Positions 10,255 to 13,038 of a stretch of 64,000 nucleotides of DNA are shown here, piece after piece. This DNA comes from an uncultured Candidatus Saccharibacteria bacterium (GTDB lineage: Bacteria; Patescibacteriota; Minisyncoccia; UBA6257; 1-14-0-10-40-38). Below the pieces are notes generated by a model. That model did no database searches. It was not told the DNA's origin and was given only the letters and a program-made list of their open reading frames with translations. The translations under genes and the position numbers were made by a program. Position 1 is the first letter of the stretch. Each line of letters begins with the position of its first letter. The stretch spans positions 6,652-70,651 of the forward strand of contig CAYSWC010000003.1 of the NCBI GenBank assembly GCA_964434715.1, given 5' to 3'.

Positions 10255-10541
10255 CTCCCCCACCAACTATGTTTCGCGGAGGCTATTTGCAATTCTTCGC
10301 TTAAGCTGATTGTATGCCCGTTTGTATTCTTTTAATCTTGATTCTCTAAGACGCGCGTCTTTTTCTGAAAAATATGCCTCGTAATATACCAAGACAAAGG
10401 GTCTGCGTGGCGCAGTTGATTTCACCAACCCTTGGTTATGCTCTGCAAATCGCCTTCGCAGGTCAGGTGTTGACCCAGTATAACATAAGCCATCCTTTTT
10501 ACTTTTAAGGACATAAACATAAAACATAGTTGGTGGGGGAG
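10255..10541. mobile_element. Miniature cassette: GIY-YIG ORF bounded by perfect 20-bp inverted repeats
   Basis: CTCCCCCACCAACTATGTTT at 10255-10274 and its exact reverse complement at 10522-10541. The start and stop codons of the ORF lie inside the repeats. Confidence 0.5.
10267..10527 (-). CDS. Small GIY-YIG nuclease family protein (86 aa)
   Basis: MFYVYVLKSKKDGLCYTGSTPDLRRRFAEHN carries the GIY..YIG motif pair plus the conserved R and E. The ORF-track extension to 10683 merely reads through the 165-bp repeat. Confidence 0.8.
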   Translation of the reverse strand: MFYVYVLKSKKDGLCYTGSTPDLRRRFAEHNQGLVKSTAPRRPFVLVYYEAYFSEKDARLRESRLKEYKRAYNQLKRRIANSLRET

Positions 10542-10704
10542 TACCTATACAACCTAGCTCGAACCTTTTTTCAACAGAACCCCCATTGATGCCGCGCTCC
10601 GCGCGGCAGGTAGCCAAACCGCTCGGGCGGCGCGGAATTCCCCCCTTGAACCCCCCTTCCGCGCCGCCCTCGCGGGAGTCCAAGTTTTTCGACCGAGAAG
10701 CGGA
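10540..10704 (-). repeat. 165-bp GC-rich structured element, left copy (inverted)
   Basis: Exact reverse complement of 12874-13038 (165/165 by manual comparison). Contains a 13-bp stem GGGCGGCGCGGAA/TTCCGCGCCGCCC and hairpin TGCCGCGC-GGA-GCGCGGCA. Confidence 0.9.
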
Positions 10705-10709
10705 AGCTT

Positions 10710-11054
10710 TTATCTTATAAAAAATTCTTTAATCAATTTAATCACCGAGAGAATGGTGGAGACTAATTTAGGATAATCACTTTTAAGAACACTTACAACT
10801 TTGTTTTTCGGAGCTAAGATTTCGTATCCAACTTTTGTAATTATTACTGAAGAAGTAATTTTTAATCCAGATCCAATTTCCTTGCAGGCTCCTTGTTCAA
10901 GTAAAAGTTGTAGGTTATGTTTCCATGGATCTATTCCAGTCTTTTGACCTCCTAGAATTTTAGAGCCAAGTCGTTCACCCAAATATCCAACAGAGATTTG
11001 CCCTCCATTATTTTTTATTGCCTCTAGAATTTCTTTTTGCTTTTGTTCATCCAT
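10710..11054 (-). CDS. Hypothetical protein (114 aa)
   Basis: ORF only. It follows the protease gene on the same strand. No motif recognised. Confidence 0.4.
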   Translation of the reverse strand: MDEQKQKEILEAIKNNGGQISVGYLGERLGSKILGGQKTGIDPWKHNLQLLLEQGACKEIGSGLKITSSVIITKVGYEILAPKNKVVSVLKSDYPKLVSTILSVIKLIKEFFIR

Positions 11055-11075
11055 TTGAGTTATAGAGATATGGAG

Positions 11076-12530
11076 CTACTCCCCAATATAACCTGCTGCT
11101 TTTGCTGCTAAAAAATACTCAACTAGTTTCGGAGTAGTTTCTATAGCACTGAATTCATCGGAAAACTCCGAAGCTTGTTTTTGATATAGTCCAGCTTGCT
11201 TTATTTTAGTTAAATCTTCGGAACTATTTTGAGCTGGCTCTGCGAGTTTTTGATATTGTAACAATTCTAATTTGGTAGCTTCCAATAATTTTTGATAGCG
11301 TAGAAGGTTTAGATTGACCAATTCTTGTGCAATATCTGAAAATAGAACATCTGGTATAGAAAGATTTTGGAGGCCAGTCACTTGAATAGCAAGGGTTATA
11401 ATGGCCTCTTTTGTCTTTTCTGCAGCGGTAGCGAAAACCGGATTTCCTGTGTATATACAGGAAGTAAAATACTCATATTCAATAATTGTTTTGTAACATG
11501 AAGCAAGTCCTTGCTGGACCAATTTATTTGCCTCTTGAGTTAGGGGGCTTACTTTCTCGAGATATAAACCTGTTGTATAAAATTTCAATTCAGTATTGAA
11601 ATGAACAAATTCATCGTATTTTGGAGGCTTTGGAGGCAATACTACCGCTCCAGATTTGAGAGCTGCCAATGAATTCTTAGCGATATCAATGGGTATTGCC
11701 AACTTTATAGTTTCTCCTACCAAAACACCTTTAATAGTTTTTCCAAAAATAGCGGTATTGATACCAATAACCTGACCTGATTTATTGACTAATGGTCCAC
11801 CGCTATTTCCGGGATGAATTTCTGCGGAAGTCTCAAAGAACATTGAATCACCCTCTCCTAGTCTTCGCGAGATAGTGCCCTCTTTAAAACTTACATCTCC
11901 TTCTATCCCGAAAGGATAGCCGAGAGCGAAAACTTCATCGCCTTGTTCGACTTTGTCTGAATCTGCAAACGTTACGCTAGCAAAATTTATTGAACTAGAA
12001 GCAGTTATCTGTAGTACCGCCAAATCTTTAACTTCATCACGCCCTTGGACAGAAGCCGTATGTGATTCATTATCGGAAGTCTTAATGATTGCGACACCTA
12101 CTCCTTTAACGACATGGGCATTGGTAAGCACTAATCCTGTCTTCTCGATAATCATTCCGGTCCCAGACCCTTTGTCTGTCTCAATATAAACTACTGCTGG
12201 TTTAACTTTTGCAATGATTTGAGCGTTAGTCAAGACAGAAACCTTTTTAGGAGAAGTGGGTGGGGGTGTTGCTGTTGTCTGCGCTTGTGGTTTCTGGTTT
12301 TGAGCTGTTTGTTTTTTTAACGCTTCAATTTCTTGCTTCAATTTTTCAATTTCTGAGACTTCAGGAGTAGTAGTGCTTTGTATATCTGTCTTTATAATTT
12401 CAGTTTGCGAGTTCTCTATTTTATGATTTTGATACTGTTTAACTCCCATATATCCGGTTCCGCCAACCACAACCACGCCAACAATAATGGCGATCAAAAT
12501 TGGTATTTGTATAAAACCTTTTTGATTCAT
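11076..12530 (-). CDS. Membrane-anchored trypsin-like (S1C/HtrA-type) serine protease with unknown C-terminal domain
   Basis: N-terminal TM helix. Catalytic triad contexts TNAHVV (His), DLAVLQI (Asp) and GNSGGPLV (Ser). The last ~190 aa do not resemble PDZ. Confidence 0.8.
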   Translation of the reverse strand: MNQKGFIQIPILIAIIVGVVVVGGTGYMGVKQYQNHKIENSQTEIIKTDIQSTTTPEVSEIEKLKQEIEALKKQTAQNQKPQAQTTATPPPTSPKKVSVLTNAQIIAKVKPAVVYIETDKGSGTGMIIEKTGLVLTNAHVVKGVGVAIIKTSDNESHTASVQGRDEVKDLAVLQITASSSINFASVTFADSDKVEQGDEVFALGYPFGIEGDVSFKEGTISRRLGEGDSMFFETSAEIHPGNSGGPLVNKSGQVIGINTAIFGKTIKGVLVGETIKLAIPIDIAKNSLAALKSGAVVLPPKPPKYDEFVHFNTELKFYTTGLYLEKVSPLTQEANKLVQQGLASCYKTIIEYEYFTSCIYTGNPVFATAAEKTKEAIITLAIQVTGLQNLSIPDVLFSDIAQELVNLNLLRYQKLLEATKLELLQYQKLAEPAQNSSEDLTKIKQAGLYQKQASEFSDEFSAIETTPKLVEYFLAAKAAGYIGE

Positions 12531-12531
12531 A

Positions 12532-12753
12532 TTATTTCAAAAAGTAATCAATACTTTTTCCATAGATTTTTGCGAATCTTTGAAGCTCGACAACATCCAC
12601 CCTCTGTTGCCCTGATTCCACATTGGAAATATGAGATTGTGGTCGGCGGAGCTTTTTTGCAACTTCAATTTGGGTCAATCCTGCCTCTTGGCGAGCTTTC
12701 CGCAATCGCTCAACAAAATAGGCGTATTCTTTTGTGTGGATAGACTTAACCAT
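12532..12753 (-). CDS. XRE-family helix-turn-helix regulator (73 aa)
   Basis: LRKARQEAGLTQIEVAKKLRRPQSHISNVESGQQRVDVVEL is a Cro/C1-type HTH. Its stop lies 1 nt from the protease start. Confidence 0.85.
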   Translation of the reverse strand: MVKSIHTKEYAYFVERLRKARQEAGLTQIEVAKKLRRPQSHISNVESGQQRVDVVELQRFAKIYGKSIDYFLK

Positions 12754-12873
12754 ACAATACTATGGTCTATCCAAATCTTCAATATCCAAACTTTAGATAT
12801 TCGTGCTACACTCAAGGGAGTAGAATTGTTGCCCGCGCACTGGGAGGGTGGGGCAAGGGCAACTCAATATCTG

Positions 12874-13038
12874 TCCGCTTCTCGGTCGAAAAACTTGGAC
12901 TCCCGCGAGGGCGGCGCGGAAGGGGGGTTCAAGGGGGGAATTCCGCGCCGCCCGAGCGGTTTGGCTACCTGCCGCGCGGAGCGCGGCATCAATGGGGGTT
13001 CTGTTGAAAAAAGGTTCGAGCTAGGTTGTATAGGTACT
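12874..13038 (+). repeat. 165-bp GC-rich structured element, right copy
   Basis: See 10540-10704. This copy is followed directly by the 22-bp-stem hairpin at 13039-13087. Confidence 0.9.

Follow-up and report, generated by a model that had tools for sequence, protein, structure and literature searches.

The stretch of DNA analysed here, called the window throughout, comprises 64,000 nt from an uncultured Candidatus Saccharibacteria bacterium (assembly GCA_964434715.1, contig CAYSWC010000003.1, positions 6,652-70,651 of the forward strand). A repeat search of the window identified two arms, at 10540-10704 and 12874-13038, which are complementary over 165 of 165 nt and separated by 2169 nt. Their identity breaks off sharply at all four edges, and a perfect repeat of this length cannot be due to chance. 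This inverted repeat and the three co-oriented genes between its arms had been pointed out in an earlier reading of the sequence (hereafter the original prediction), and both are borne out, the genes by the list of open reading frames (ORFs) and by Pfam. We propose that the region from about 10540 to 13089 is a recombinase-less member, probably a decayed and non-autonomous one, of a family of small integrative elements of candidate phyla radiation (CPR)/Patescibacteria bacteria. A large serine recombinase (LSR) would insert such elements at the very 3' end of genes for tRNA or transfer-messenger RNA (tmRNA). The features of the locus, in which att stands for a recombinase attachment site and the repeated arm is referred to as the unit, are the following:

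10255-10274, plus strand: arm of a 20-bp perfect inverted repeat, partner at 10522-10541, bracketing the GIY-YIG gene
10267-10527, minus strand: GIY-YIG nuclease gene, 86 aa (Pfam GIY-YIG), assigned to the flanking DNA (tRNA-Gly trailer cassette) and not to the element
10528-10541, minus strand: attR-like junction, where the unit end ...GGTA-CT is joined to CCCCCACCAACT
10540-10704, minus strand: left arm, the distal copy of the unit, in the same sense as the cargo operon (covariance-model match 10528-10708)
10710-11054, minus strand: ORF of 114 aa, cargo
11076-12530, minus strand: membrane-anchored Trypsin_2/HtrA-like serine protease, 484 aa, C-terminal half unannotated, cargo
12532-12753, minus strand: XRE-family helix-turn-helix (HTH) gene, 73 aa (Pfam HTH_3), divergent from the right copy of the unit, conserved first cargo gene
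12782-12800, no strand: imperfect AT-rich palindrome ATATCCAAACTTTAGATAT, separating the HTH gene from the unit
12828-12863, plus strand: GC-rich hairpin GTTGCCC...GGGCAAC, shortly upstream of the right arm, not included in the repeat
12874-13038, plus strand: right arm, the HTH-proximal copy of the unit (covariance-model match 12870-13050)
13037-13089, no strand: perfect palindrome with 24-bp arms and a 5-nt loop, exactly between the unit and the tRNA-Gly 3' end, a bidirectional terminator-like hairpin
13088-13159, minus strand: tRNA-Gly(TCC), the putative integration target and attB-side arm, whose 3' end ...ACCCG-CT abuts the palindrome

Read along the minus strand, the locus thus runs from tRNA-Gly(TCC) (...ACCCG-CT) through a 49-nt perfect palindrome, the unit in antisense, the extra hairpin and the AT-rich palindrome to the HTH gene, and then through the protease gene, the 114-aa ORF and the unit in sense (...GGTA-CT) to CCCCCACCAACT and the ATG of the GIY-YIG gene. 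In complete relatives, the position of the tRNA is likewise occupied by a tRNA or tmRNA 3' end. Both ARAGORN and Rfam identify the adjoining gene as tRNA-Gly(TCC), not tRNA-Trp as had been written, and the terminator credited with a 22-bp stem has arms of 24 bp (13037-13060 and 13066-13089; arm sequence CTTCGAGATTTAAAAAGGCCAGAA). ORFs crossing the two copies of the unit do yield the same peptide of about 47-48 aa, as the original prediction stated. The left copy had also been said to lead into the GIY-YIG ORF; the gene starts at the ATG at 10527, the longer ORF across the repeat is spurious, and this boundary is better described as the right-hand junction of the element with a native tRNA-Gly trailer that already carried the GIY-YIG gene.

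Domain searches gave no family match for the 114-aa ORF at 10710-11054. A protease related to that of the window is cargo in another locus, L014 (labels L001-L122 designate the contigs and loci compared with the window). A defence system as cargo was considered and set aside, PADLOC giving only generic domain-level similarity to the protease domain and to the XRE HTH. Palindromes nearly identical to ATATCCAAACTTTAGATAT lie at the same place in L003 and L110, and from its sequence and position this palindrome is likely the XRE operator. The GTTGCCC...GGGCAAC hairpin is kept only beside HTH-proximal copies of this subfamily (L003, L006, L043, L090, L101); it is unlikely to be the operator, since a separate AT-rich palindrome occupies the interval from the HTH gene to the unit.

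Contigs of two independent assemblies, made from short reads of the population to which the window belongs, both stop inside the repeat, one (L002) after 139 nt (k139) and the other (L001) after about 30 nt (k31). Ends at a depth equal to the k-mer size are expected of a true repeat and argue for a real repeat rather than the artefact of one assembly. Blastn and the covariance model agree that there are only two copies within the 64-kb window, for which reason a dispersed repeat in this genome was rejected. Across the contigs compared, perfect arms are identical inside each genome and diverged between genomes.

The unit folds into two domains. The first consists of a main stem of 13 bp, lengthened by tandem G.A and two G-C pairs, with a loop made of two G6 runs at its end, either G6-TTCAA-G6 or, in copies found outside the selection by loop sequence, G6-TGT-G6. 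The second is closed by a helix GAGCG/CGYTY, in which 42 G.T pairs stand against about 2 A.C, and this helix encloses a GC hairpin whose position is kept while the sequence and length of its stem vary between subfamilies. Two of the three hairpins originally described, the 13-bp stem around the G6-TTCAA-G6 loop and the 8-bp GC hairpin, are recovered by this fold; the third, CCC-GCGA-GGG, is not, its GGG being paired within the main stem. The fold of the plus strand is the more stable one in 41 of 48 members (mean -51.3 versus -47.9 kcal/mol), and 97.1% of cells are paired, compared with 34-55% in slid-partner controls. True compensatory changes are few and come mostly from one subfamily split, and G-U and A-C exceptions in the main stem are equally frequent. 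Together, the strand-biased stability and the excess of G.T pairs favour a single-stranded fold of the plus strand, as RNA or as single-stranded DNA, in the same sense as the LSR gene and the cargo operon. A search of Rfam 15 with either copy found no match at the gathering score and no family even at E≤10, where only chance-level hits to Chlorobi-1 (13 bits) appeared. In at least three lineages the 19-nt G-run loop is inverted relative to its flanks, the perfectly palindromic stem being unchanged; copies of this kind are at L020 1000-1169 and 2690-2859, in L009, L018, L019, L068 and L079, and at L104 1939-2143 / L052 11322-11492, and this small hairpin-loop inversion is thus recurrent.

The family was traced using the read-through peptide as a proxy for the unit and then a 21-nt loop core as the query. 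The peptide led to groundwater contigs in which a similar sequence is again divergent from a 73-aa HTH gene, and the loop core matched 23 GTDB species-representative genomes and 86 metagenome contigs; the covariance model (R1) recovered further partner arms. Nearly all the genomes with the loop core are labelled as CPR/Patescibacteria lineages, and the family now exceeds 100 loci, from Azam-, Lipton-, Sung-, Uhr- and Portnoybacteria, Paceibacter and metagenome-assembled genomes (MAGs) labelled Saccharibacteria. No match was found among 2.9 M viral contigs, searched with a 27-mer and a 21-mer, and a viral origin was rejected. Two copies are present in 22 loci, with perfect runs of 47-186 nt around interiors of 1.1-3.5 kb, and in 21 of them, as in the window, the units point their 5' ends inward; the sole exception, L020, has a flipped loop and conforms when oriented by its flanks. 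Where at least 3.6 kb of interior-side sequence is available, an inverted partner exists for 22 of 29 copies, and for two of the seven partnerless copies it is hidden by an N-gap or a contig end. The HTH gene is divergent from the unit in about 60 instances and is usually the first gene of a cargo that is otherwise highly variable, with proteases, DNA methyltransferases, NUDIX and HIT proteins, S-adenosylmethionine (SAM) methyltransferases and a peptidoglycan-binding phosphatase. Directly after the distal units the flanks commonly show terminators of the A-tract/hairpin/T-tract kind, which is what former tRNA trailers would show.

The family is associated with a recombinase. In about 15 loci (tblastn), an LSR gene lies on the same strand as the unit and starts 236-281 nt downstream of its core; the proteins are about 520 aa long (515-526 aa) and carry the Resolvase, Recombinase and Zn_ribbon_recom domains, seen in L012, L015, L016 and L052. 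The LSR gene is itself associated with a second perfect inverted-repeat pair of 68-130 nt, named Ld, one arm of which is the 5' leader of the LSR gene while the other lies inside its C-terminal coding region. In L012, L015, L016 and L025, and also in L052, the Ld pair abuts the unit pair with an overlap of 3-5 nt (CAC, CCAC or CACCA). At its outer end stands the 3' end of tRNA-Leu (L012), tRNA-Ile (L015, L025) or tmRNA (L016), or, in L052, a second unit type with a C-rich loop and the same 3' domain. The same short overlap recurs at unit-leader, tRNA-leader and unit-flank junctions. The original prediction had opposed an RNA element to a transposase end; a conserved structured unit of which one strand folds better does exist, but the opposition is misleading and the unit was wrongly separated from mobile-element ends, given that an LSR gene follows it in these relatives and that its 3' end is an arm of a putative recombination site abutting tRNA-derived junctions.

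That 3' end reads GGTTCGnGC, then a TATAAT-like box, then CACCA, so that its last 30 bp or so imitate the stretch of a tRNA from the T-loop to the CCA end. In all four loci that can be resolved, GTTC(G/A) stands 23 nt away from the shared block in the unit and 18-19 nt away in the tRNA or tmRNA. In the attB sites of serine integrases, the motif of the zinc-ribbon domain lies 5 bp nearer the centre than in attP (Rutherford et al., PMC3783163). The outward shift of GTTC(G/A) by 4-5 nt on the unit side, together with the CAC-type cores, thus suggests that the unit-Ld junction is attP-like, the tRNA-Ld junction attL-like and the unit-flank junction attR-like, with GTTC(G/A) as the putative zinc-ribbon-domain site. 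By eye, the -10-like TATAAT box lies 5-7 nt before the unit-leader junction; no consensus sigma-70 promoter was predicted in or beside the window unit. The unit resembles a tRNA end only in the spacing of GGTTCG...CACCA: ARAGORN found no tRNA or tmRNA within it, and an origin from a tmRNA or tRNA fragment was rejected because alignments to two CPR tmRNAs gave z of about 0-1, the sole stronger one being a single 15-nt match (z 3.5) in L016.

At the other end of the window element, comparison with L122 was informative. There, a GIY-YIG gene 80% identical to that of the window follows tRNA-Gly(GCC) directly, as ...GCCCG-CT-CCCCCACCAACT and ATG, and the inverted 15-19-mer known from the window comes after it (L122 2986-3275). 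The dinucleotide CT is common to the window unit, to tRNA-Gly(TCC) and to the tRNA-Gly(GCC) of L122, and GIY-YIG homologs adjoin tRNA-Gly in L122, L116 and L117. As the arrangement in L122 exists without the unit, the GIY-YIG gene of the window, with the 20-bp inverted repeat that brackets it, is native DNA of a tRNA-Gly trailer. For this reason a place for GIY-YIG within the element, or a role as the nuclease of the element, was dismissed, and GIY-YIG is absent from every other locus with the unit. The bracket itself (window 10255-10541) is a 15-20-bp inverted repeat of a tRNA-Gly-trailer-like sequence, GC(C/G)(C/G)GCTCCCCCACCAACT, and the hundreds of GIY-YIG homologs in CPR bacteria, many of them carried by very short contigs, suggest that a GIY-YIG cassette located at tRNA-Gly trailers is mobile or repeated.

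We thus consider it probable that the family consists of LSR-moved integrative elements at tRNA and tmRNA 3' ends and that the junctions are att sites. The complete layout would be tRNA, Ld, LSR gene, Ld', U', XRE HTH gene, cargo, U and the former tRNA trailer, U being the unit of about 170 nt. The last 30 bp or so of U and the start of Ld would form the attP-like site, recombination of which with the tRNA end would leave an attL-like tRNA-Ld and an attR-like U-trailer junction, and an intact inverted copy of attP would be kept inside the integrated element. Retention of this copy would explain why there are two perfect inverted-repeat pairs and why they abut at the crossover. Both the cargo segment and the LSR segment could flip between their long identical arms, and the arms would stay identical because the flipping recombination homogenises them; arms identical within genomes and diverged between them point to ongoing homogenisation. 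Both segments are oppositely oriented in L052 and L012, a difference that may reflect integration through either of the inverted attP copies or flipping of the segments. In the window, the target would have been tRNA-Gly(TCC), and the LSR cassette would have collapsed to the palindrome with 24-bp arms, now terminator-like, whose arms would be the outer ends of Ld and Ld', the scar of the terminal inverted repeat of the cassette. The palindrome is perfect, fills the gap between unit and tRNA exactly and is placed like the Ld-LSR-Ld' cassette of L012, L015, L016 and L025; a comparable imperfect palindrome of about 54 nt lies between two convergent units in L003. The distal U would be joined to the old tRNA-Gly trailer with its GIY-YIG gene, the unit-CCCCCACCAACT junction being attR-like with CT as the shared core, and the predicted attB is tRNA-Gly(TCC)...ACCCGCT joined directly to CCCCCACCAACTATG.

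The original prediction also held that the identical repeats allow the whole module to invert. Three sets of contigs that are otherwise 100% identical (L021/L055 versus L082, L082 versus L106, L028 versus L110) have interiors reversed relative to the same outer flank, and module inversion is on this comparison likely, if unproven. The arm lengths approach the read length, and assemblers can orient such segments arbitrarily, an ambiguity that also makes the orientation of the interior in the window contig uncertain.

Several observations weigh against the LSR interpretation or against parts of it. There is no recombinase beside the window unit, the 49-nt palindrome occupying that position, and the sole LSR homolog of the window, at tRNA-His and 7 kb away, shares 33% identity with the LSRs linked to the unit. 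Recombination of attP with attP is not a permitted LSR reaction (Rutherford et al., PMC3783163), and integrated LSR elements have not been described with an intact inverted attP inside them. No empty site or excised circle was observed, although no dedicated search for them was made; partial support for such a site comes from the tRNA-Gly of L122, after which the CCCCCACCAACT and GIY-YIG trailer that adjoins the window unit follows directly. The window unit ends in GGTAC-T and not in the CACCA of the family, which leaves the exact crossover uncertain, and beyond its position the proposed scar has a weak match, 12 of 17 nt by eye, to the leader of L016. The flipped contigs may be choices of the assemblers, and one of the arms concerned contains an N-gap (L028) while another is cut by the contig end (L082). 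Finally, the family was collected by loop sequence, so that the apparent invariance of the loop is partly a matter of ascertainment.

Other explanations of the repeat have to be set against this one. That the unit is primarily a structured RNA, serving as the 5' leader of the LSR gene and the 3' end of the cargo operon or as a stand-alone small RNA, with the RNA gene needed at both ends, is a tentative possibility to which we give somewhat less than even weight; it overlaps with the LSR interpretation and does not exclude it. It draws on the greater stability of the plus strand in most members, the predominance of G.T over A.C in the GAGCG/CGYTY helix, the high proportion of paired cells relative to slid partners, and the enclosed hairpin that keeps its place as its stem changes. 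The conserved tandem G.A pairs lengthen the main stem while breaking the palindromy of the DNA, HTH-proximal copies have an extra conserved hairpin upstream, and the sense of the unit is that of the LSR gene downstream and of the cargo operon upstream. Nevertheless, the unit has no Rfam match and no predicted promoter, its few true compensatory changes stem largely from a single split, main-stem G-U and A-C exceptions balance each other, and the flipped G-run loop of at least three lineages would be C-rich in any transcript. We hold only tentatively that the hairpin domain acts as RNA; the function that we favour as a candidate is to act in cis on the recombinase and the cargo operon, as a transcript or a regulatory region. 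A more speculative role, which we regard as improbable, is that of a structured nucleic-acid cofactor of the LSR, a transcript or extruded single strand that would join two copies through the paired G6 runs capping a stem of 13-17 bp (for example in an intermolecular G-quartet) or otherwise license the recombination of inverted attP-like sites. This idea draws on the co-orientation with the LSR, the strand-biased folding, the pairing and a conservation that extends far beyond the roughly 50 bp an LSR site needs; if it were true, CPR bacteria would possess a self-contained system for cassette flipping or cassette exchange.

The segment could instead be a programmed switch of the Gin/Hin/Cin type, flipped by the adjacent recombinase so as to alter the expression of the cargo, the proximity of the tRNA being incidental. 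The recombinase gene does lie immediately outside the bracketed segment, as with gin and cin, both orientations are found in near-identical contigs and between L012 and L052, and the arms are perfect within a genome but diverged between genomes. Against this, the recombinases are LSRs of about 520 aa and not invertases of about 190 aa with a C-terminal HTH, and the arms measure 47-186 nt instead of about 26-34 bp; flipping the cargo, a self-contained operon that includes its own regulator, would alter no obvious link between promoter and gene, and the tRNA/tmRNA junction is precise, with attP/attB-like geometry in the four loci that can be resolved. We consider such a switch rather unlikely. 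Less likely still, long terminal inverted repeats around a variable cargo, contigs that often break at the arms and modules that can adjoin would also be expected of a transposon, or of an element resembling a miniature inverted-repeat transposable element (MITE), with its transposase encoded elsewhere. No DDE, HUH or Tn3 transposase was found in the modules examined, no target-site duplication is seen, the outer flanks of the window arms sharing no direct repeat, only two copies exist in 64 kb, and the arms are linked specifically to an LSR and to tRNA 3' ends. The least probable explanation is an assembly artefact, which would have doubled or mis-joined a sequence present once, or left the interior in an arbitrary orientation. 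K-mers alone cannot orient a segment between identical 165-bp arms, and L001 and L002 end in the repeat; yet each arm is entered by two different unique flanks in independent assemblies, and the same paired architecture is shared by over 20 unrelated loci, which come from various projects and were built by various assemblers. The existence of two copies of the unit is therefore secure.

Returning to the interpretation as LSR-moved elements, the parts are known, namely large serine integrases, tRNA/tmRNA targets and segments bracketed by inverted repeats, while their combination is apparently undescribed; a search of the literature brought up no report of such LSR elements from CPR bacteria. 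Classical LSR elements and phages (A118, Bxb1 and phiC31 types) share with the family the Resolvase, Recombinase and Zn-ribbon architecture, junctions with only 2-5 nt in common, an att site that adjoins or overlaps the recombinase gene and the 4-5-nt shift of the distal motif between element and host arms (PMC3783163). Unlike them, the family targets several different tRNA and tmRNA 3' ends, measures only about 4-5 kb without phage, replication or transfer genes, keeps an intact inverted attP region and hence two perfect inverted-repeat pairs, and has its element-side arm within a conserved structured unit of about 170 nt. Tycheposons are small integrative elements with variable cargo at tRNA and tmRNA genes, of which a minority use LSRs, most having tyrosine recombinases, direct partial-tRNA repeats of about 40 nt and often replication genes (Hackl et al., 10.1101/2020.12.28.424599). 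The family is like them in its small size, variable cargo and tRNA/tmRNA sites, and unlike them in that its repeats are inverted, 47-186 nt long and not copies of the tRNA. The invertible segments of serine invertases (Mu Gin/G, P1 Cin/C, Salmonella Hin/H) and the shufflons likewise have a serine recombinase beside a segment bracketed by inverted repeats, occur in both orientations, as the segments of the family may, and find a parallel in the arrays of modules of L003, L052 and L061. They differ from the family, which has an LSR, much longer arms and whole operons with a regulator in place of alternative gene ends or a promoter.

Two further comparisons can be drawn by analogy. The yeast 2-micron plasmid, which replicates, carries the FRT site of the tyrosine recombinase FLP within inverted repeats of 599 bp. 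The predicted excised circle of the family would resemble it in having two long inverted repeats that contain a recombinase site and two unique segments that can flip, but its recombinase is of the serine type and the circle itself is a prediction only. In Tn3/gamma-delta, the serine recombinase has its own binding site in the promoter region of its gene. The unit-leader site, which has a TATAAT-like box and lies 140-250 nt upstream of the LSR gene, may be similar to such a res site, although binding or repression by the LSR there is putative and the window copy has no consensus promoter.

The genomes of CPR/Patescibacteria are tiny, and characterised mobile elements are few in these bacteria. 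If the proposed interpretation is true, the family would be a compact vehicle that places accessory genes (proteases, methyltransferases, NUDIX/HIT enzymes and cell-wall proteins) at tRNA and tmRNA ends. An inverted attP retained in a double inverted-repeat design would be unusual for serine integrases and raises the question of how directionality and inversion are controlled, and LSRs that recognise tRNA 3' ends, some of only about 515 aa, may interest genome engineers. The perfect arms also account for the recurrent breaks of contigs, and for possible mis-orientation, in CPR MAGs.

Some variants of the family were noted alongside. In L003, L052 and L061 several bracketed modules adjoin, with three or four copies of the unit per contig, which suggests cassette arrays rather than single insertions. 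The second unit type, U2, occurs at L003 2600-2830 (minus strand) and L052 about 4960-5080 (plus strand); it has the same 3' domain ending in CACCA and a different main hairpin, with the loop CCTCCCCAGACCCCTCC and two CCUCC motifs, and can replace the tRNA beside the recombinase cassette. A truncated unit stands head-to-head on the 3' end of tRNA-Ala (...CTTTT joined to TGGTGGACC...) at L028 4339-4437 and in L040, a junction that the simple attP x attB scheme does not predict.

Elsewhere in the window, a 538-aa LSR homolog at 20101-21717 (minus strand), the distant relative mentioned above, overlaps tRNA-His (20039-20112) with its 3' end, is without long inverted repeats and seems to represent a second, different LSR element, likewise sited at a tRNA gene. 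The Rfam family LOOT RNA (RF03000) matches 25574-25701 (plus strand) with 65.7 bits (gathering score 46.4), about 4 kb from this second recombinase. Two tRNA genes are duplicated within the 64 kb, tRNA-Phe(GAA) at 19152-19223 and 31545-31616 and tRNA-Arg(TCT) at 14769-14842 and 31619-31692; such duplication is uncommon in a small genome and may be connected with the insertion of elements. Beside tRNA-Gly lies a 223-aa ORF (13163-13834, minus strand) whose N-terminus weakly matches an HTH and in which a LAGLIDADG-like motif can be seen by eye; a 1228-aa ribonucleotide-reductase-like ORF (15231-18917, minus strand) contains what by eye is an intein-like insert with LAGLIDADG motifs.

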